From Caldithrix sp. RBG_13_44_9 (GTDB taxonomy: Bacteria; Calditrichota; Calditrichia; RBG-13-44-9): a stretch of DNA of 60,357 nt. Positions 789-9,208 of the stretch are shown one piece after another. The stretch covers positions 1 through 60,357 of the forward strand of contig MESS01000079.1 in assembly GCA_001771055.1 (NCBI GenBank), in the 5' to 3' direction. The notes beneath the pieces are model-generated. The model worked only from the letters and a program-made list of their open reading frames with translations, ran no database searches and was not told the DNA's origin. Numbering within the stretch: position 1 is the first letter of the stretch; each line of letters opens with the position of its first letter. The position numbers and the translations under genes were made by a program.

Positions 789-3476
789 ATGTTTAAGAAT
801 GTATTAAAAGAAGAAGTCATTATTCCCGCCCAGATGCCCTATCTGCGGCAGGTACGGGATTTTATCGAGCAGATTGGTGCCCGCCACAACTTCGATCATA
901 AAATCATTAACTCTTTCAAGCTGGTAGTGGATGAAGCTTGTACCAATATCATCCGCCATGGTTATCGTGACATTAAAAACGGACAGATCATGGTGCGGGC
1001 TATTGTCCGCCGCATGAGTCTGACCATCGTTATCGTCGACAGCGGCCACAGTTTCGACCCGCGCCAGGTGCAGGATCCCGATCTGGAAAAATATGTCTCC
1101 ATCGGTAAGAAGGGCGGTCTGGGTATCTTCATGATGCGCAAGCTGATGGATGACATTAAGTATAATGTCACCAGCCGCGGAAATGAGTTACGGCTCACCA
1201 AAGTACGGGAAAAGGTCGAACGTACCAGACCCATGGTGTTCTGGGAAGGTCTGACCCTGCGCACAAAATTTTATATCGTTACTTCCATTATTCTCACTGT
1301 CCTGGTTTTTGGATCTTTTATTTTTTTCAACTCCCGTATCCTCTCTAATGTCACTTCCCAGGTATATCTGGATGGTCAGGCCTTTAGCTCTAACCTGGCT
1401 AAAATATCCTGGGAACCGTATATCGCCTCCAAAGATATTACTCTGTTCGAAAATGCCAAGTCGGTCAAGGAAAACAATCCTGAAATGATCTCCCTGGTAT
1501 TGATTACTGATACTGCTTCCAGACCCCTGGCTACCTTTCCGGTGAAGGTTGATATGTTAGGTAAACCCCTGGAGATCCCTGCTAAGCAATTTTTAGACAC
1601 CCTGGATGCAACCCTGGTTTATCAATACACTTTTAATAAGGACAGCGTGATCTATGCTTTCGTCCATCCTATTTCTTTGACAGGAATTAACGATACCCCC
1701 ATCGGTTATGCCCAGGTATGGGCCAATCAAAAATATATCGAACGGAAAACGAAGCTTTCCCGGATCAATTTGGTCGCGGTGCTTTTCATCATTCTGATCG
1801 TGGGAAATGTGGGTGCCTTCGTGCTGATCACCCGCATCATGGATCCCTTTCATAAACTGGCCGGCTGGGTGCGCGAGGTGGGTCATGGCACCGTGGATGA
1901 AGATGAACTCGATATCGATGCCAGCGATGAGCTGGGTGAGATCGCCCAGGCTTTCAATGAAATGACCACCAAATTCCGGGAAGCCCAGACCAATATGATG
2001 GAGCAGCAGCGGATCCAGCGGGAATTACAGGTGGCGCAGGAAATTCAACAAATGCTGCTGCCCAGCGACTTCCCCAATGTGGTGGGTTATGATATCACCT
2101 CTTACTACCAGGCCGCCAAAGAAGTAGGCGGAGATTTGTTCGATTTCGTGGAGGTGGATGAGCATACCACTGGCATCTGTGTGGCCGATGTTTCCGGGAA
2201 GGGTGTTCCCGGTTCAATGGTAATGACCATGATCCGTACCGCTCTCCGTCTGGAAGCCCGCGGCAATAAAAATCCCGCTGAAGTTCTGTCCAAGGTCAAT
2301 GAATTTGTCACCGATGATATCCGTAAGGGAATGTTTGTCACTGCCTTCTATATTATCCTGGACTCTCGTGAACGGATGATTTCTTTTTCCAGCGCTGGTC
2401 ATAATCCCATGATTTTGTACCGCGGAAAATCCAAAGAAACCTATTACCTGAATCCGCCCGGATTCCCGGTCGGTATTACTCTTCCCGATATCCATCTGTT
2501 CAGTAATACCATCAAGGCGGATCGCATCCGGCTTCACCCCGATGATATCCTGATTGTCTATACCGATGGTATCACTGAAGCGATGAATCATAAGCGGGAA
2601 ATGTTTGGTGATGAAAGATTCCTGGAGGCCATCCGCAAGTATGGTACATTGGATGTTATTGAGTTTGTCAATAATCTCAAGCAGGAACTGCAGAATTTTA
2701 CCGGCGGATATGAACAGACTGATGATATCACCCTGGTTGCTATCAAAGAAAATATGGAAGCCGTGGATGTCAAAATAGACATGTTTAAGAATCTCTTTGA
2801 ACTGGCCGGTAAGAATGATGTGACCATCCTGCAGGCCTGCAAGGAAATGGATGTTTCTCCTTCCACCTATTACAAATATAAGAAGATCTATGATGAAGGC
2901 GGATATGAGTATCTGCGGGAAATGCTGCATGGTTATACCAATGTGGGCCTGCGTCATATGAGTGTGGAGGTCAAGACTAAACTATATGATATTATCCGCG
3001 AACATCCGGACTTCGGACCGAAACGGATCAGTGATGAGTTGAATACCGAGAAGTACGGATATGTGGAAGTTCTTCCCCGCCTGATTTATGAAGAGCTCAA
3101 GCGTGCCAAACTCAACTTGCAGCGTCAACGGGAAAAATTTGTACAGCGGGGGGGCAAGCGCCGCCTCAAACCCCCGGGAACACCGCTATTGACCCTGGAT
3201 GGCGAAGTGATGGTGGGATTTCGCTCCGATGAGCAGGAGGTGGCACCAAATATCTTTAACATTGCCACTCCGATATTTCCAGGAAAGGCCAAAGAAATTC
3301 TTTTATCGAAAAAAAGTAGCCGCAAGGAAAAAAGTGCATCAATATCTTCTGATGATCAGGACCTCGAGCCGCTGGATACCGGCCCTGCGCCTGATGTAAA
3401 AATTTCTTCAGATGAGAATAAAGCTGACGATAATGTAAATATTATTTCTGAAGAGACTGATAAAAAGGAAAGATAG
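789..3476 (+). CDS. Multidomain membrane sensor: N-terminal RsbW/SpoIIAB-type serine kinase (HATPase_c), 2 TM helices around a periplasmic segment, HAMP, PP2C/SpoIIE phosphatase, C-terminal transposase-like HTH pair, low-complexity tail
   Basis: Kinase boxes 'VVDEACTNIIRHGY', 'DSGHSFD', 'KKGGLGIFMMRKL'. Hydrophobic helices 'FYIVTSIILTVLVFGSFIFF' and 'LVAVLFIILIVGNVGAFVLI'. HAMP-like 'ELGEIAQAFNEMTTKF'. PP2C motifs 'EVGGDLFDF', 'VADVSGKGVPGS', 'VYTDGITEA', 'QTDDITLVAIK'. HTH-like 'TILQACKEMDVSPSTYYKYKKIY'. K/S/D-rich tail. Confidence 0.8.
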   Translation: MFKNVLKEEVIIPAQMPYLRQVRDFIEQIGARHNFDHKIINSFKLVVDEACTNIIRHGYRDIKNGQIMVRAIVRRMSLTIVIVDSGHSFDPRQVQDPDLEKYVSIGKKGGLGIFMMRKLMDDIKYNVTSRGNELRLTKVREKVERTRPMVFWEGLTLRTKFYIVTSIILTVLVFGSFIFFNSRILSNVTSQVYLDGQAFSSNLAKISWEPYIASKDITLFENAKSVKENNPEMISLVLITDTASRPLATFPVKVDMLGKPLEIPAKQFLDTLDATLVYQYTFNKDSVIYAFVHPISLTGINDTPIGYAQVWANQKYIERKTKLSRINLVAVLFIILIVGNVGAFVLITRIMDPFHKLAGWVREVGHGTVDEDELDIDASDELGEIAQAFNEMTTKFREAQTNMMEQQRIQRELQVAQEIQQMLLPSDFPNVVGYDITSYYQAAKEVGGDLFDFVEVDEHTTGICVADVSGKGVPGSMVMTMIRTALRLEARGNKNPAEVLSKVNEFVTDDIRKGMFVTAFYIILDSRERMISFSSAGHNPMILYRGKSKETYYLNPPGFPVGITLPDIHLFSNTIKADRIRLHPDDILIVYTDGITEAMNHKREMFGDERFLEAIRKYGTLDVIEFVNNLKQELQNFTGGYEQTDDITLVAIKENMEAVDVKIDMFKNLFELAGKNDVTILQACKEMDVSPSTYYKYKKIYDEGGYEYLREMLHGYTNVGLRHMSVEVKTKLYDIIREHPDFGPKRISDELNTEKYGYVEVLPRLIYEELKRAKLNLQRQREKFVQRGGKRRLKPPGTPLLTLDGEVMVGFRSDEQEVAPNIFNIATPIFPGKAKEILLSKKSSRKEKSASISSDDQDLEPLDTGPAPDVKISSDENKADDNVNIISEETDKKER

Positions 3477-3556
3477 TTGTTATATTTGGATCAGAATTTT
3501 AATTTCGTACTCATAATAAATAATCACAATCTCCTGGAATAAGCTGGAGGATATAA

Positions 3557-4312
3557 ATGGAAGGCATTCAGGTATCTACCGAAGTAAGAGGCAGTCAAAA
3601 TCAAGTTTCCATCATCAAGGTGGGTGGATTTATTGATACGACCACTTCCTCTGAAGTTGAGCGAACCTTACATAATTTATTAAAACAGAATCGCTATAAT
3701 ATTATTATTGATCTGGGTAATGTAGATTACATCAGTTCAGCCGGTTGGGGTATCTTTATCAGTGAAATTAAATCGATTCGTGAGCAGACCGGTGATTTGA
3801 AATTGGTCCGCATGATTCCGGACGTTTATGAGATATTTGAATTACTGGAATTCCATCATATCCTGGATGTGTATGATACGGTGGATGAAGCCGTGAAGCG
3901 GTTTGAGGATAATGTCCTGCGGCCCACTGCCGCTACGGTAGCCCGGGAATTTGACGAAGTGCGCCGCACTCCGGTTGGTACTGCCGGCCCCGCCGGGACC
4001 TTTACCCAGAGGCGTCCGGTTTTTCAGACTGAACCGGAAGAAGAAGAGCCGGAGCTTGCTGAGAAAGTAGAGTCCAGACAACAACCTAAAGAACCAGTAG
4101 GTGGCGCAGCGAAAATTGAGGATAAAATTAAAAATATCATATCCCGCAATCCGGATCTGAGCGCCTATAAAATTAAAAAAGTATTAAACAGCAGTAAATT
4201 CGGTTATACCAGGGTGGGTTGGTTCAGCATTCGCTCTATATTAAAAGATATGGGTCTGGGTAGCCGCAAAAGCCGGAAAGAATTTGCCCAGAAACAGGCA
4301 AAAACCGCTTAA
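3557..4312 (+). CDS. STAS-domain anti-sigma-factor-antagonist-like protein (RsbV/SpoIIAA family) with a C-terminal HTH-like extension
   Basis: GGAGGA Shine-Dalgarno sequence 6 nt upstream of the ATG. STAS core 'IIIDLGNVDYISSAGWGIFIS' has the conserved phospho-serine context. aa 184-243 resemble aa 725-784 of the upstream sensor. Confidence 0.8.
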   Translation: MEGIQVSTEVRGSQNQVSIIKVGGFIDTTTSSEVERTLHNLLKQNRYNIIIDLGNVDYISSAGWGIFISEIKSIREQTGDLKLVRMIPDVYEIFELLEFHHILDVYDTVDEAVKRFEDNVLRPTAATVAREFDEVRRTPVGTAGPAGTFTQRRPVFQTEPEEEEPELAEKVESRQQPKEPVGGAAKIEDKIKNIISRNPDLSAYKIKKVLNSSKFGYTRVGWFSIRSILKDMGLGSRKSRKEFAQKQAKTA

Positions 4313-4340
4313 GAATTTACTAAGGGTAACTGTAATATCT

Positions 4341-4841
4341 ATGGGAGTAATTGAAGTTTTTTTTGTCGTCATCTGTGCTTTTAGCCTGGTTTCGAATTTT
4401 TTGAGTATACCGGGAAATTTCATTGTTTTCCTGAATACCACCTGGTATGGAGTAGTTACCAGTTTTAATGAATTTTCCTTTGGATTTTTACTCACCATCT
4501 TTGCCATTGCAGTTGGAGTGGAATTACTGGAATATTTAATCATTGCCTTTGGTGCCCGTAAATATGGTGCCTCTCGCTGGGGAGTTATCGGTGCCATCAT
4601 CGGGGGAATTGGCGGAAGCATCAGCGGTTTTTTCTTCAGTCCGGTTATGGGAGCAGTGGTGGGCGGATTGATTGGGGTGATTGTCGGTACCGTTAGTATT
4701 GAACTTCTACGGGGAAAAAATATCCGCCAGGCTTCCTATGCTGCTCTGGGAGCTCTGCTGGGAAGAGTCGGCGGACTCTCCATCAAAGCAATCGGATCAG
4801 TCACCATGGTGGTGATTGTAGCCAACAAACTCTTTTTCTAA
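4341..4841 (+). CDS. DUF456-family small membrane protein
   Basis: Gly-rich multi-TM protein with 'ELLEYLIIAFGARKYGASRWGVIGAIIGGIGG', typical of DUF456 as I remember it. The ATG at 4341 is preferred over the track start at 4284, which overlaps the STAS gene. Confidence 0.55.
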   Translation: MGVIEVFFVVICAFSLVSNFLSIPGNFIVFLNTTWYGVVTSFNEFSFGFLLTIFAIAVGVELLEYLIIAFGARKYGASRWGVIGAIIGGIGGSISGFFFSPVMGAVVGGLIGVIVGTVSIELLRGKNIRQASYAALGALLGRVGGLSIKAIGSVTMVVIVANKLFF

Positions 4842-5042
4842 ACTAGATCTCCATTCATATTTAAGTGGTCTTCCTCGCTGGATCATTACCTCATCCCTGC
4901 TATTCCAGTTTTCCATTGATATTGACCAAGGTTGTCCAATAATTGTTATTGGATTCCTCTGGTAGCTGAGCTAAATTTTTTGCGGGTGAATCTTTTAGGT
5001 ACTTTAAGTGTAAGAATGATCAGCGGAATCAAGAGCCTGGAA

Positions 5043-5696
5043 ATGAAAACTAAATTGTGGTGGATGGTATTACTATCATTTTACAGCCTGCTGTATAGCC
5101 AGCAGGAAATCACGGTGGCCCGTATCAAATACAAAGGTGGTGGTGACTGGTACGGTAATCGCACGACTTTTGTTAACCTGTTTCACTATATGCGGCAGAA
5201 TACCAATATTCAAACCAGTGAGCGGGAGGCAACCGTAGAGATAATGGATCGGGATTTCTTCCGCTATCCTGTTGCCTATATCGCCGGGCACGGTAATATC
5301 AAATTCAACGAAGAAGAGGTAACTCGTCTGCGGAAATATCTGATCTGCGGCGGTTTTCTCTGGGCCGATGATGATTATGGAATGGATTTTTCTCTGCGGC
5401 GGGAAATGAAACGGGTATTTCCGGAATTGGAATGGATGGAATTACCATTTTCCCATTCCATCTACCACATCCTTTATCAGTTTCCCAATGGATTACCCAA
5501 AGTCCATAAACACGATGGCGGTCCTCCTGGTGGATTTGCTCTGTTCTATGAGGGCCGGATGATTGCCTTCTATTCCTGGAATACTGATATCAGTGATGGG
5601 TGTGAGGATCCTGATGTCCATGGCGATCCTCCGGAGATCCGGCAAAGCGCACTGCAAATGGGAACAAACATTTTACTGTGGATTTTAACTAACTGA
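5043..5696 (+). CDS. DUF4159-like secreted/periplasmic protein
   Basis: The ATG at 5043 gives the signal-peptide-like N-terminus 'MKTKLWWMVLLSFYSLLYSQQ'; the track start at 4932 is a TTG with a non-signal-like extension. Motifs 'ARIKYKGGGDWY', 'FFRYPVAYIAGHGNIKF', 'GGFLWADDDYG' match my memory of DUF4159. Confidence 0.55.
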   Translation: MKTKLWWMVLLSFYSLLYSQQEITVARIKYKGGGDWYGNRTTFVNLFHYMRQNTNIQTSEREATVEIMDRDFFRYPVAYIAGHGNIKFNEEEVTRLRKYLICGGFLWADDDYGMDFSLRREMKRVFPELEWMELPFSHSIYHILYQFPNGLPKVHKHDGGPPGGFALFYEGRMIAFYSWNTDISDGCEDPDVHGDPPEIRQSALQMGTNILLWILTN

Positions 5697-5782
5697 CTTT
5701 TTTTGCAGAAATACTGAAAGATCTTATAGAAACTTTTTTCCTTGAGCTTTAAAATTGGAATAAAACTGTTGTTAAAATATTT

Positions 5783-8700
5783 ATGACCATACCTTATCTT
5801 GAACAACAATATTTCTCGGTTATCCGGCGAATCCTTCGCACTCATCGACGGTACAATGCCTATAAAATCATTAATTTATTCCTGAAATATATCCTGATTC
5901 TCTCGCTGTATCTGGCATTCCTGCTGCTGATCAATCTATTATTTTCTGTCACCCCGATAGTGCGGTTGTCTTCTTTTACTCTCTTTCTGGCCGGCTCGGC
6001 GATTTTTTTTATTTTAAAAGTTTATCCGGCGCTGAAAGAGATATTTGATCCAACCCAACTGAAGATATTTCTGAGTGCCCGGGAAGTGGGAAATACCGAT
6101 CCGGCAATTCGGGATGCCGTAATCAATTACTTGCAAATATTTCATGATAAGGGAAGTTCGGGCTCAGCGGTCATAAAAAAAATGGCGCTGGAACAGCTAT
6201 ATCAACGAATCACCGGATTTTCCTTTGCCGATCAACGGCTGCCAAGATCTATTGTCCCTCAATTACGGTTGGTACTGCTGCCATTTGTACTCTTGGTGGT
6301 GGTCTATTTTCTTTTTCCGGCTTCGATTGGAACCGCCTTGCAGAAAATTATTCTGCCCTGGAAAAATTTTATCAATCCTTTCCCGGTAACAGTCCATAAT
6401 GACTCCGGTTTTTTGAAAGTGCTTAAAAATGAAGCAGTTACTCTTTCCGGTTCTTCACGCGGAGTAATACCCGACCAACTATTCCTCGTTATTGAGGAAA
6501 TGGCGGTGGATGATTTTGCTGAGCGGGAGAAGAAAGTAAATAAAATTAACCTTTCGACCGCAGCTTCTGGACATTTTTCTTACCAGATAGCTCATGTGAC
6601 AGGTTCTTTTGATTATTATTTTTTGGCAGAATTGAATCAAGCAAAATTCCGAAATAAAAGTGCGGTGTCAGAAAAAGCCCGGGTGGAGGTGCAGGAAAGG
6701 CCCCTCCTTCGTGCCATGCAGATTAAGATTATTCCACCCGCTTACACTGGTTTGAAGCCGGTTCTGCTGGACCCCAACCAGGGGGAAATTACCGCCCTGG
6801 ACGGCAGCCAGGTTTTTTTATCGTTGGAATCGGATAAACAGCTTTCCTCTGCGGTGGCGGTTTTTTCTGATTCGACCAAACTGTCCCTGAAAGTAAGCGG
6901 ACATACTGCCAATCTCTCATTTTCGGTCCATAAAAATCTGAATTACTATATTCTGCTCAGTGACGAAGAATCTATTACCAATGCTGATCCGGTAATCTAT
7001 GGTATTTATCTGTTACCCGATGAAATGCCATATGCCGAATTTAAACTGCCGGCTGCCGATGTCGATCTGCAGGATAATCTGAATCTGCCGGTGTTGATAG
7101 AGCTGCAGGATGATTTTGGTTTTTCCAAATTATGGATAAAGGGAAAGATTTTTCGCCAGGGATCAGCAGGTGATAGTGCTGACTTCGAAATGGAAGTCCC
7201 GTTTCAATTGCAGGAAAAGGGGCGGGCGGTCAGTGAATTCAACTGGGATTTGACACCTTTCTATCTGATCCCGGATGATTATATCCAGTATCATGCCCAG
7301 GTGTTCGATAATGACCGGGTAAGCGGACCCAAATCATTCACCACACCTACTTTTACTATCCGCCTGCCTTCGTTACTGGAAATCTTGACCCGCAGTGAAA
7401 GTGCCCAGGAAGAACAGCTGGAGAAGTTGGAGGATGTTGCCAGAGAATCGGAAGATTTAAAGGAGAAACTGGAAGAGATAAACCGGGAATTGAAAAAAGA
7501 GACTCAGTTGAATTGGGAACAGCAGCAGGAAATAAAAAAGCAGCTGGATCGTCAGCAGGAAATTTCGGAAAAGTTATTACAGATTCAAAAAGATATGGAG
7601 TCTCTGGTTCAGGAGATGGGACAAAAAGATTTTTTGAGCAAGGAAACGCTGGAAAAATATTTTGAACTGCAAAAAATGTTTCAGGAATTGGCCCCTCCGG
7701 AAATTCAGGAAGCTATGAAAAATTTACAGCAGGCTCTGGAAAAACTGGATATGGCCCAACTGCAGAAAGCGATGGAGCAATTTCAATTTTCGGCAGAACA
7801 ATTTGAAAATAATATTGAAAGATTATTTGAATTATTCAAACAGTTGCAATTGGAACAGCAGATGGATCAATTGGTCAAATTGGCTGAACAACTGACTCAG
7901 GATCAGTCTCAGGTGAATGAGAAAGTCGAGGAGCAGAACTTAAGTGATGATAATTTCCAGCGGTTGGAAAAGATGGAAGAAAATATTACTCAGAATTACG
8001 ATTTTCTGACAGAAAAATTGGAGCAGACCGCTGAAGATTATGAAAGTATGATGGACCAGCGTTCGGAGATGCTGGATCAGACCGGCAGCTTTATGGAATC
8101 GCAGGAAATGCAGTCGCAGCTTAAGGAAATGCAGCAGCTCCTGGAAGGGAAGATGCAATCCTCTGCATCTGAACAGGGTCAAAATCTGAAAAGCAATTTT
8201 GAAATGATTCAAAGCATGCTGCAAAAGGCCAAGCAGGATATGCTGCAGGCTCAGAAGAATGAGGTTACCGCCGAGATGCAGAAAGTGATGCAGGATATGC
8301 TCAGTACCTCCTTTGCCCAGGAAAATCTTTCTCTACGGGCAGAAAATTTAAATCCGGCTTCACCTCAGATTAATGATATTGCCAGACAACAGGCGCGCTT
8401 GATTGGCAATACTGGACAGATAATATCCCAGGTAATGGAAATATCTCACAAAACCTTTTTTCTGCCTTCCGACCTCAGTCAGAGCATGTCTAAGGTTTTA
8501 TCAAGTATGAGCGAAGCTGTTTCTCAGCTGGAGAACAGGAATCCACGCCAGGCTTCAGGCCAGCAGAAAAATGCCATGGCCGGTCTGAACCAATCTCTCC
8601 TGTCCATGCAGAGCAGCATGGATCAGTTGTCCCAATCGTCCTCTGCTTCCGGAATGGAACAATTCCTGGAACAGCTGCAGAAAATGTCCGGAATGCAGGG

Positions 8701-9208
8701 GCAGTTAAATCAGGAAAGCATGTCCTTATTTCAGGCCGGTCAGCAAGGCCGGATCCAGTTATCAGCCGATGATTTGGCACGCTTGGCTGCCCAGCAGGGA
8801 ATGATTAAAAATTCTCTTGAACAGCTTTCCGACGAAGCCGGCTCCAGACGTGATGTTCTTGGCCGGATGGACGAGCTGGGTGAAGAAATGGAGGAGGTGA
8901 TCCGGCAGCTGCAGGCCCAGAATATGGACCGCAAGGTTATTGAAAGACAGGAAAGAATACTTTCCCGGCTGCTGGACGCCCAGAAATCGGTGCGGGAGAA
9001 AGAGTATTCAAAGAAAAGGGAGGCCGAACGGGAAAAGATCCAGCTGGTTAAGTCGCCCCCGGAATTAAAAAAAGAGTGGATTCTAAAAGAAGATCGTCTC
9101 CGTAAAGAGCTCATGAATGCTCTGGAAGAGGGCTACTCTGCAGAATATCGTGAGTTTATTAAATCTTATTTTGAATTCCTTTCCCGGCAGCCCAATATCA
9201 CTCAATGA
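5783..9208 (+). CDS. Very large (1141 aa) membrane-anchored coiled-coil protein, DUF4175-like
   Basis: N-terminal hydrophobic helices ('ILILSLYLAFLLLINLLF', 'FTLFLAGSAIFFILKV', 'LVLLPFVLLVVVYFLF'), a central beta-rich region, then a ~550-aa Q/E/K/M-rich heptad-like region (about nt 7385-9050). The family name is from memory of typical DUF4159/DUF4175 gene pairs. Confidence 0.5.
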   Translation: MTIPYLEQQYFSVIRRILRTHRRYNAYKIINLFLKYILILSLYLAFLLLINLLFSVTPIVRLSSFTLFLAGSAIFFILKVYPALKEIFDPTQLKIFLSAREVGNTDPAIRDAVINYLQIFHDKGSSGSAVIKKMALEQLYQRITGFSFADQRLPRSIVPQLRLVLLPFVLLVVVYFLFPASIGTALQKIILPWKNFINPFPVTVHNDSGFLKVLKNEAVTLSGSSRGVIPDQLFLVIEEMAVDDFAEREKKVNKINLSTAASGHFSYQIAHVTGSFDYYFLAELNQAKFRNKSAVSEKARVEVQERPLLRAMQIKIIPPAYTGLKPVLLDPNQGEITALDGSQVFLSLESDKQLSSAVAVFSDSTKLSLKVSGHTANLSFSVHKNLNYYILLSDEESITNADPVIYGIYLLPDEMPYAEFKLPAADVDLQDNLNLPVLIELQDDFGFSKLWIKGKIFRQGSAGDSADFEMEVPFQLQEKGRAVSEFNWDLTPFYLIPDDYIQYHAQVFDNDRVSGPKSFTTPTFTIRLPSLLEILTRSESAQEEQLEKLEDVARESEDLKEKLEEINRELKKETQLNWEQQQEIKKQLDRQQEISEKLLQIQKDMESLVQEMGQKDFLSKETLEKYFELQKMFQELAPPEIQEAMKNLQQALEKLDMAQLQKAMEQFQFSAEQFENNIERLFELFKQLQLEQQMDQLVKLAEQLTQDQSQVNEKVEEQNLSDDNFQRLEKMEENITQNYDFLTEKLEQTAEDYESMMDQRSEMLDQTGSFMESQEMQSQLKEMQQLLEGKMQSSASEQGQNLKSNFEMIQSMLQKAKQDMLQAQKNEVTAEMQKVMQDMLSTSFAQENLSLRAENLNPASPQINDIARQQARLIGNTGQIISQVMEISHKTFFLPSDLSQSMSKVLSSMSEAVSQLENRNPRQASGQQKNAMAGLNQSLLSMQSSMDQLSQSSSASGMEQFLEQLQKMSGMQGQLNQESMSLFQAGQQGRIQLSADDLARLAAQQGMIKNSLEQLSDEAGSRRDVLGRMDELGEEMEEVIRQLQAQNMDRKVIERQERILSRLLDAQKSVREKEYSKKREAEREKIQLVKSPPELKKEWILKEDRLRKELMNALEEGYSAEYREFIKSYFEFLSRQPNITQ

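Follow-up and report, generated by a model that had tools for sequence, protein, structure and literature searches.

We analysed a window of 60,357 nt from Caldithrix sp. RBG_13_44_9 (GCA_001771055.1, contig MESS01000079.1, forward strand, positions 1–60,357), in which two adjacent forward-strand genes encode a sensor and a STAS protein (STAS1). The sensor gene (789–3476), delineated by its open reading frame, Pfam matches, 205 homologues with the same C-terminal region and an AlphaFold2 model, encodes 895 residues and is composed of an RsbW-type kinase, a transmembrane helix, a periplasmic domain, a second transmembrane helix, a HAMP domain, a PP2C phosphatase, a bipartite transposase-type helix-turn-helix (HTH), a conserved motif and an acidic disordered tail, in this order. 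The RsbW/SpoIIAB-type serine kinase domain (residues 12–138; 822–1202) is matched by Pfam HATPase_c_2 (E 3.3e-29) and NCBIfam RsbW (E 1.8e-22), and its N-box and G-boxes are unchanged, with N53, D84, G86 and G109–G112 invariant among 54 orthologues. By hydropathy and AlphaFold2, two transmembrane helices (residues 161–180 and 328–347) flank an alpha/beta periplasmic sensor domain of about 145 residues (1269–1829 in all), which is modelled with six strands after a single long helix (pLDDT 80–90). The HAMP domain (residues 346–396; 1824–1976; Pfam HAMP E 6e-9) is followed by a PP2C/SpoIIE serine phosphatase domain (residues 458–653; 2160–2747; Pfam SpoIIE E 7.4e-50), whose metal-binding aspartates D449, D467, D593, D645 and D646 are invariant in the same 54 orthologues. 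Pfam thus places an RsbW-like kinase at the N-terminal side and a PP2C phosphatase at the C-terminal side of one protein and, judged by sequence, the sensor is a SypE/SiaA-like dual kinase/phosphatase with catalytic motifs intact in both domains. A conserved TPR protein is encoded upstream, and in other families the sensor itself is fused to TPR repeats.

The C-terminal region of the sensor comprises two HTHs. The first, 'PAI'-like HTH (residues 656–714; 2754–2930) is matched by Pfam HTH_23 (E 7.6e-4), with HTH_29, HTH_28 and HTH_Tnp_1 sub-threshold, and precomputed assignments place HTH_23-type first-HTH families on many sensor orthologues as well. Its helices span residues 656–674, 680–687 and 691–714 (pLDDT 80–87, AlphaFold2). 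A HGYTNxGLRH linker, nearly invariant in the 54 orthologues (2931–2960; the motif as located covers residues 714–724, 2928–2960), joins it to a second, 'RED'-like HTH of the HTH_32/HTH_21 type (residues 725–786; 2961–3146), defined by alignments, the AlphaFold2 model and the IS481 model, with helices at residues 726–738, 744–751, 763–772 and 778–786 (pLDDT 80–90, AlphaFold2). Immediately after it, the invariant motif RGGKRRLKPPGTPLLTLDGEVMVGF (residues 787–811; 3147–3221) is predicted to be disordered (pLDDT 27–43); columns G788–G805 are invariant among the 54 orthologues, and the motif, found in most full-length sensor representatives, is a candidate short linear binding motif.

The STAS1 gene (3557–4312), defined by its open reading frame and 1945 homologues, encodes 251 residues forming a STAS domain, a disordered linker and a C-terminal HTH. 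The SpoIIAA/RsbV-type STAS domain (residues 14–112; 3596–3892; Pfam STAS E 5.9e-19) is matched by Foldseek to SpoIIAA (1th8_B, E 1.4e-8, target TM 0.88). Specifically, S61 (3737–3739) aligns with the phospho-serine position of the RsbV/TM1442 'MDS(T/A)G' motif and lies in a DYISSAG motif that is invariant across 68 sequences, so that by alignment S61 is a conserved, predicted phospho-serine at the start of helix 2. The linker of about 65 residues (residues 118–183; 3908–4105) has no conserved column, with pLDDT below 50 at residues 123–183. The tail (residues 184–250; 4106–4306), defined by alignments and AlphaFold2, folds in the model into a three-helix HTH, to which a basic helix is added at the C-terminus (helices 187–197, 203–210, 222–231 and 237–250; pLDDT about 88). 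STAS1 lies directly 3′ of the sensor in 74/74 of the loci with an upstream sensor frame on the contig (80 related loci), often only 25–35 nt from the sensor stop codon, and the two genes are probably co-transcribed. The adjacent upstream gene thereby supplies a cognate RsbW-type kinase and PP2C phosphatase for STAS1. The downstream genes, conserved class-wide, encode a small membrane protein that by eye resembles DUF456, a 254-residue protein and a 1141-residue membrane protein.

The initial annotation had placed the same module at the C-termini of both proteins, with 18 of 60 positions identical without gaps. Both segments (sensor residues 725–784, 2961–3140; STAS1 residues 184–243, 4106–4285) were recovered exactly, as was the count of identities, and the segment ahead of the sensor module, TILQACKEMDVS..., begins at residue 679. 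BLASTP aligns the two tails over 66 residues without gaps at 30% identity (E 4e-8), their Smith-Waterman score of 76 compares with 21.4 ± 4.0 for shuffled sequences (z = 13.6; 0 of 5000 shuffles reach 76), and comparison of the tail profiles of the two families with hhalign gives a probability of 98.7% (E 2.8e-16, 67 columns), verifying that the segments are one homologous module. Comparison of 120 STAS homologues shows conservation in the tail but not in the linker (residues 118–183), indicating that the tail is a domain rather than part of a disordered linker. A chance likeness, a disordered tail of biased composition or the accidental fusion of a recent insertion-sequence fragment could be read from the identity of only 30% and from the sub-threshold Pfam HTH matches of the window's own sequences. 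This origin is, however, refuted, and its probability is negligible, given the shuffles, the profile-profile E value, the helical bundle at pLDDT about 88, the absence of a DDE domain, and copy number and synteny that are fixed across two phyla.

The module is a domesticated second HTH of the bipartite DNA-binding N-terminus found in IS481/IS3/IS630-type transposases. As in these and in Tc1-mariner transposases, the sensor has a first HTH (HTH_23/28/29), a linker and a second HTH (HTH_32/HTH_21/Tc3_2), in agreement with the initial reading of the module as a transposase N-terminal HTH and of the segment ahead of it as a first HTH; STAS1 carries the second HTH only, and the whole bipartite N-terminus occurs only in the sensor. 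Positions 7–114 (of 284) of the NCBIfam model transpos_IS481 align to sensor residues 671–782 (E 3.4e-9), a real transposase from a related genome matches the module by BLASTP (E 1e-4) with a collinear N-terminus, and the top PDB profile match is 5unk, a Sleeping Beauty transposase DNA-binding fragment, in which the matched region is presumably the RED subdomain. HTH_21, HTH_32 and HTH_Tnp_Tc3_2 match most family members sub-threshold (26, 10 and 10, respectively, of 40 tails). In the window itself all Pfam HTH matches fall under the gathering thresholds, at 16.0 bits for HTH_32 (cut-off 33.7) and 13.9–17.5 bits for HTH_Tnp_Tc3_2 (cut-off 31.5). The kinship to these families is therefore real but remote, and the module is a distinct family; its profile does not reach ordinary transposases in a search of the whole library. 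Unlike transposases, the module proteins lack a DDE domain and are inherited vertically at fixed copy number: no rve match was found in the sensor or STAS1 up to E 1, and the motif after the module does not align with the DDE core. The earlier term 'winged' has to be dropped, as AlphaFold2 models the module in the sensor and STAS1 as a confident helical bundle, of three helices plus a basic fourth helix, in which the beta wing is absent.

The module was surveyed in 61 Calditrichota genomes, 41 genomes of the KSB1-labelled phylum and 61 genomes of a third phylum, a set that includes the complete genome of Caldithrix abyssi. It is present in 61/61 Calditrichota genomes (exactly three copies in 46/61) and in 40/41 genomes of the KSB1-labelled phylum, mostly as a trio of the sensor, STAS1 and a second STAS protein (STAS2), and is patchy in the third phylum (11/61). 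In a profile search for the module, 566 module representatives were found among 1.84 billion, almost only in STAS-module or kinase-HAMP-PP2C-HTH-module proteins. Real HTH_32 transposases occur in only 5/21 relatives, whereas the module stands at three copies, in fixed contexts, in nearly all genomes of the two phyla, indicating that it is not a mobile element. In the module tree the sensor and STAS2 clades are separate, with both phyla within each; the trio has been inherited vertically since before the split between Calditrichota and the KSB1-labelled phylum. Transposase-type HTH tandems related to the module also occur in other phyla, as fusions to membrane enzymes such as GT2 and GspC-PDZ.

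The third copy, on STAS2, is unlinked to the sensor and STAS1 genes and sits in a conserved exopolysaccharide (EPS) locus, in the order sugar transferase, STAS2, Wza-like protein and Wzc-like protein. STAS2 lies between Bac_transf and Poly_export/GNVR genes in 16/18 loci, in both phyla. STAS1 and STAS2 are presumably the phosphorylation substrates of the sensor. A single conserved motif found upstream of STAS2 occurs neither at the sensor loci nor ahead of the STAS2 gene in this genome, and no partner candidate is conserved in the sensor and STAS2 neighbourhoods alike.

The STAS tails carry mean net charges of +8.1 (pI 10.3; STAS1, 83 orthologues) and +6.7 per 59 residues, and the invariant surface-type residues K208, N211, W222 and R226 are found where helix 2 ends and helix 3 begins, and a basic SRKxR helix comes next. 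The basic tails, these invariant residues, the invariant linker between the sensor HTHs and the precedent of the STAS repressor CapS all argue for DNA binding. We tentatively propose, at somewhat below an even chance, a phospho-switch whose STAS outputs bear a strongly basic, predicted DNA-binding HTH. In such a switch, a periplasmic signal would set the balance of kinase and phosphatase activity, as in SypE/SypA and SiaABC, and the phosphorylation state of the STAS proteins would determine whether they stay bound to the membrane-located kinase domain of the sensor or are set free. As the output, the strongly basic tail would direct the unbound STAS proteins to DNA, where they would regulate transcription in the manner of CapS, plausibly of EPS and surface genes, while the sensor HTH pair might gather enzyme and substrates on one nucleic-acid scaffold or compete for the same sites. 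Against a DNA output stand the two helices that anchor the sensor in the membrane, the fact that the closest functional relatives, SypA and All4160, act post-transcriptionally, the sub-threshold Pfam HTH matches of the window's own sequences, and fold searches in which the tail could not be isolated. In addition, no DNA target was found: the sensor–STAS1 spacer usually holds only a ribosome-binding site, and the motif upstream of STAS2 is not shared with the sensor loci. Helix 3, presumed to be the recognition helix, has the sequence WFGVRS in STAS1 but LIYEELKRAKL, which contains two acidic residues, in the sensor; this sharp difference between the classes makes it unlikely that both read the same DNA sequence. 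We regard as unlikely the more specific model in which the HTH is a common address tag of the membrane kinase/phosphatase and both STAS substrates, which would signal on, or compete for, specific DNA sites as a membrane-anchored, sigma-free, DNA-scaffolded switch directly controlling EPS.

The class-specific helix 3, with the acidic YEEL of the sensor facing very basic STAS tails, also fits docking or tethering, in which an HTH-derived domain that no longer binds DNA pairs module to module, or binds the first HTH or the invariant motif of the sensor. The two dedicated STAS proteins would thereby be held on their own kinase/phosphatase and insulated from the genome's five other STAS proteins, and the real output would be control of the EPS machinery at the protein level, for example of the neighbouring Bac_transf priming enzyme. 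The module is almost exclusive to the enzyme and its two presumptive substrates, in single copy in each, and occurs on only 2/7 STAS proteins of the genome; the linker is long, variable and disordered, as tethers typically are; and membrane enzymes of other phyla bear the kindred HTH tandems. Moreover, STAS2 adjoins Bac_transf, Anabaena All4160 is a post-transcriptionally acting STAS-Bac_transf fusion, and the SypA target is not a sigma factor. Docking nevertheless appears rather unlikely, although a serious contender: we know of no HTH_32/HTH_21-type domain that dimerises, and a protein that binds DNA would be expected to keep the fold, basic charge and conserved helix 2/3 face seen here.

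The strong positive charge would equally suit RNA or an anionic membrane, and all three modules might bind one common macromolecule (one of these, RNA polymerase/sigma, or an EPS-machinery protein), with competition for it as the switch. Classical RsbW-type kinases grip a helical sigma domain, and the conserved upstream TPR protein and the TPR-sensor fusions point to further protein partners. However, the tails show no Sigma70_r4 or sigma-like Pfam signal, no sigma gene lies nearby (Sigma70_r2 has 0 matches on the 60-kb contig; all 10 sigma genes of the genome are on other contigs, from which a distant partner might still come), and the sensor and STAS2 neighbourhoods share no conserved candidate for such a partner, making a shared third partner improbable.

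Partner switching is among the most widespread bacterial signalling devices, and its sigma-independent outputs, such as that of SypA, are mostly obscure. Here the presumed substrates and the enzyme alike bear a conserved, readily recognised domain as putative output, which opens such an output to direct testing, for example in Caldithrix abyssi, and the system ties the switch to a conserved EPS locus in the little-studied sediment phyla Calditrichota and KSB1. The module constitutes a domain family whose members current Pfam models see only sub-threshold, and it shows clearly, in bacteria, how the DNA-binding domain of a transposase has become a fixed host domain, kept through the history of at least two phyla. 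A DNA-scaffolded switch, if true, would suggest what type of target to seek for SypA-type STAS regulators.

Among known systems, SypE/SypA of Vibrio fischeri likewise combines an RsbW-like kinase and a PP2C phosphatase in one protein acting on a STAS protein, with the STAS gene in a polysaccharide locus beside export genes and no sigma factor involved. SypE, whose architecture was reportedly described by Morris and Visick in 2013, is cytoplasmic with a central receiver, whereas our sensor has no Response_reg match and carries transmembrane helices, a periplasmic domain and HAMP in its place; SypA is STAS-only, and the Syp proteins lack the HTH module. SiaABC of Pseudomonas aeruginosa, comprising a membrane PP2C phosphatase, a kinase and a partner-switch protein, controls aggregation. 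The sensor's HAMP and PP2C domains are most similar to SiaA, a biofilm regulation protein phosphatase (top NCBIfam match, E 6.7e-24, at only 84 bits against a cut-off of 700), but SiaB is a polypeptide of its own, a diguanylate cyclase serves as the output, and HTH modules are absent. All4160/HenR of Anabaena PCC 7120 also links a STAS phospho-switch to a Bac_transf sugar transferase for polysaccharide, except that the two are fused in All4160 and neighbouring genes here, the HTH module is absent, and the kinase and phosphatase are separate proteins (bioRxiv 10.64898/2026.04.08.717354).

The initial annotation knew of no described STAS-HTH output, a claim overtaken by CapS, a STAS-wHTH repressor from Enterobacter roggenkampii and Vibrio cholerae that leaves DNA once CapK, a kinase that itself bears an HTH, has phosphorylated it on serine (Chambers et al., EMBO J 2026; PMC13373217). 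In both systems the gene immediately downstream of an HTH-bearing GHKL/RsbW-like kinase encodes a STAS protein that ends in an HTH and has a conserved serine at the phosphorylation position (PMC13373217). The STAS-HTH output is thus already known from CapK/CapS, and the transposase-type version differs from it. The CapS HTH is MarR/ArsR-like, winged and packed on STAS, whereas STAS1 has a three-helix module on a 65-residue disordered linker; its tail matches only HTH_21, HTH_32 and Tc3_2, and the wing is absent from the model. CapK is a soluble HTH-STAS-GHKL protein without phosphatase, and deletion of its HTH has no effect (PMC13373217); neither its architecture nor an immune operon is matched here, where the domain order and the downstream genes differ and a membrane sensor carries kinase, HAMP, PP2C and a C-terminal bipartite HTH. 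Finally, CapKS lies upstream of immune operons on mobile islands, whereas here a core trio is passed on vertically, carries homologous HTHs on enzyme and substrate, and includes a second STAS protein in an EPS locus.

The module-bearing trio is real, ancient and conserved. The sensor, a protein of 895 aa, is encoded at 789–3476 on the forward strand, and the STAS1 gene (251 aa; 3557–4312, forward strand) starts 80 nt past it. The initial annotation, made from the sequence alone, had proposed that the two proteins share a C-terminal module of ~60 aa resembling a transposase N-terminal winged helix-turn-helix (HTH). Sequence comparison places the two copies where they had been reported, at sensor residues 725–784 (2961–3140, forward strand) and STAS1 residues 184–243 (4106–4285, forward strand), and a recount of the ungapped alignment again gives 18 identities in 60 positions. 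BLASTP aligns the tails over 66 aa, gap-free and with 30% identity (E 4e-8), none of 5000 shuffles attains their Smith-Waterman score (z = 13.6), and profile-profile alignment of the sensor-family and STAS-family tails gives a probability of 98.7% (E 2.8e-16), indicating that the similarity, at the level of sequence, is beyond chance. Conservation among STAS homologues extends over the STAS domain and the tail but skips the intervening residues 118–183, as for a domain rather than a linker.

Several independent comparisons point to derivation of the tail from the N-terminus of a transposase. Sensor residues 671–782 match positions 7–114 of the 284-position NCBIfam IS481-transposase model (E 3.4e-9), and BLASTP aligns the sensor C-terminus collinearly with the N-terminal part of a bona fide transposase encoded in a related genome (E 1e-4). 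Pfam assigns to the sensor, all on the forward strand, an RsbW-type kinase (HATPase_c_2, residues 12–138), HAMP (346–396), SpoIIE/PP2C (458–653) and HTH_32 (693–761), with weak matches to HTH_23/29/28/Tnp_1 at residues 675–709. Among 40 tails from both families, 26 match HTH_21, 10 match HTH_Tnp_Tc3_2 and 10 match HTH_32, every match being under the gathering cut-off. Against the PDB, the tail profile matches best, though weakly (E 0.058), a DNA-binding fragment of the Sleeping Beauty transposase (5unk), corresponding to its RED subdomain. No DDE domain is found in the sensor or STAS1 by Pfam, by the extent of the IS481 match or by BLASTP against transposases, and the module is best described as a relative, not a member, of HTH_21/HTH_32 and not as a transposase.

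AlphaFold2 models built from family alignments contain a confident helical bundle with an HTH in both proteins. Specifically, the sensor module comprises predicted helices 726–738, 744–751, 763–772 and 778–786 (pLDDT 80–90), preceded by a first HTH with helices 656–674, 680–687 and 691–714, while the STAS1 module comprises helices 187–197, 203–210, 222–231 and 237–250 (pLDDT about 88), preceded by a disordered stretch, 123–183. Neither module model has a beta wing; the transposase-type assignment of the initial annotation was upheld and its "winged" qualifier was not, whereas its reading of the stretch before the sensor module as the first HTH of a transposase N-terminus agrees with the weak Pfam matches and the modelled helices. 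Based on the family matches and the AlphaFold2 helices, the sensor bears a complete bipartite, paired-like transposase N-terminus, and STAS1 only its second HTH. A fold search with the full-length STAS1 model against PDB and viral libraries returned STAS-domain matches only. A role of the tails as sigma-factor mimics was rejected, as they give no Sigma70 Pfam signal, and the 60-kb contig carries no sigma-70-family gene.

A third copy of the module lies in the same genome on STAS2 (266 aa; contig C28, 886–1686 of fetched locus L002; also L103), so that two of the genome's seven STAS proteins, STAS1 and STAS2, carry the tail. The module is present in 61 of 61 sampled genomes of the window's phylum (labelled Calditrichota/Calditrichia and including Caldithrix abyssi), 46 of which carry precisely three copies, one each in the sensor, the adjacent STAS1 and the unlinked STAS2; in 40 of 41 genomes of a second phylum, mostly labelled KSB1 and mostly with three copies; and, as a sensor-STAS pair, in 11 of 61 genomes of a third phylum, including one MAG labelled Spirochaetota. 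Among 80 fetched loci, all 74 with an upstream sensor frame on the contig keep the order sensor then STAS1, the contigs of the other six showing the STAS1 copy only; the spacer, longer in the window, is often or mostly 25–35 nt. Searched with a profile, 1.84 billion representative proteins yielded just 566 matches at E <= 1e-3, nearly all STAS-module or kinase-HAMP-PP2C-HTH-module proteins, the latter usually continuing into an invariant motif. Real HTH_32 transposases are patchy (5 of 21 relatives). In the module tree, the sensor clade (support 0.997) and the STAS2 clade (0.946) each contain both phyla, and the three classes would therefore be older than the split of Calditrichota and the KSB1-labelled phylum, a conclusion to be read lightly given the short alignment.

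Metagenomic variants include STAS proteins with two tandem modules (P0250 and P0269, 383–386 aa) and N-terminally extended X-STAS-module proteins (P0329, P0347 and P0378, 399–483 aa). Patescibacterial (HTH-HTH)x2-GT2 proteins (P0356, P0369, P0379, P0384), a four-module T2SSC-PDZ protein (P0341) and a Chlamydiales protein of five modules alone (P0243) were rejected as members, scoring 10–44 bits per domain versus 55–70 in true members; these transposase-type HTH tandems in non-transposase proteins are other, independent domestications.

Directly after the sensor module, an invariant peptide, RGGKRRLKPPGTPLLTLDGEVMVGF (3147–3221; sensor residues 787–811), is predicted to be disordered (pLDDT 27–43), is found in most full-length sensor representatives and looks like a candidate short linear binding motif. 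The idea that the invariant PPGTPLLTLDG motif after the module is a remnant of the first DDE strand was rejected, BLASTP against two real transposases giving no collinear match. The sensor ends in a poorly conserved, disordered acidic tail of 83 aa (residues 813–895; 3225–3473; net charge −7), which gives way to TPR repeats in longer homologues; other families of the sensor class have sensors of 1070–1270 aa with C-terminal TPR repeats (P0225–P0241). A TPR protein gene (1–741) lies directly upstream of the sensor across a 48-nt gap, and the TPR part probably acts as a functional partner. The genes downstream of STAS1 (4284–9208) encode a small membrane protein, DUF456-like as judged by eye, and two further proteins, one of 254 aa and the other, with membrane and coiled-coil parts, of 1141 aa; their order is kept in 41–57 of 81 related Calditrichota loci but not in the KSB1-labelled group.

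The sensor kinase and phosphatase domains both retain their invariant motifs, and two TM helices flank a ~145-aa alpha/beta domain. The STAS domains resemble SpoIIAA/RsbV (Foldseek E 1.4e-8) and share an invariant DYISSAG, in which Ser61 falls at the position of the known phospho-serine. A periplasmic signal would lead the sensor to phosphorylate or dephosphorylate STAS1 and STAS2, on the SypE/SypA pattern.

The output of the module may be DNA binding, which we put at a little below an even chance. The module descends from a DNA-binding domain whose fold it retains; the STAS tails are very basic (mean net charge per 59 aa of +8.1 in STAS1, pI 10.3, and +6.7 in STAS2); K208, N211, W222 and R226 are invariant around the helix 2/helix 3 face, alongside a basic SRKxR helix; the linker joining the two HTHs of the sensor is invariant; and CapS provides a precedent (PMC13373217). 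The same fold, charge and helix 2/3 face weigh against a docking role, in which the module would mediate protein contacts instead. Docking, which we consider rather unlikely, would fit the restriction of the module to an enzyme plus the two proteins presumed to be its substrates, the length and flexibility of the linker, the class-specific helix 3 (WFGVRS in STAS1 versus acidic LIYEELKRAKL in the sensor), the membrane anchoring of the sensor, and the post-transcriptional action of SypA and the STAS-Bac_transf fusion All4160. Binding of all three proteins to a common third partner seems distinctly improbable.

By gene content, STAS2 resides in an exopolysaccharide biosynthesis/export locus: in 16 of 18 loci, spanning both phyla, it is flanked on one side by the gene of a Bac_transf priming sugar transferase and on the other by Poly_export (Wza-like) and GNVR/Wzc-like genes, with FemAB-like, epimerase or DUF3473-deacetylase genes nearby. 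In this genome STAS2 adjoins Bac_transf and is followed by other genes, one for a protein of 126 aa and one that is asparagine-synthase-like. A conserved, non-palindromic element, TTRACGNGGCGRAGC, occurs upstream of STAS2 in 6 of the 18 loci (L088, 6612–6626; L089, 6274–6288; L090, L091, L094 and L095), about 20–30 nt before the start codon in five of them, the placement being established for all but L091. It is absent from the sensor loci and from the STAS2 locus of this genome, which has four 1-mismatch sites on other contigs. No operator shared by sensor and STAS2 loci was found in the sensor-STAS1 spacers, most of which hold GGAGG only, and the STAS2 upstream regions. In KSB1-labelled L097, L098 and L101, sigma-54-like −24/−12 candidates (TGGCAT-N5-TTTGCC, TGGCAT-N5-ATTGCT and TGGCAT-N5-GTTGCC) were seen by eye within 110 nt upstream of STAS2.

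The output mechanism of the trio is now open to direct testing, and published systems offer partial parallels. The view in the initial annotation that no STAS-HTH output had been described is superseded by CapK/CapS, a STAS-HTH phospho-switch whose kinase also bears an HTH (PMC13373217). The system described here resembles CapK/CapS in both respects, but differs in HTH class, linker, kinase architecture and genomic context, and CapK/CapS has no phosphatase. SypE/SypA, which lacks an HTH, likewise joins kinase and phosphatase in one protein and is set in a polysaccharide context. SiaA is the top-scoring named relative of the HAMP-PP2C part of the sensor, with a score far under the SiaA cut-off. 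What the trio adds to sigma-independent partner switching is a domesticated transposase HTH, carried by each of the three partners.
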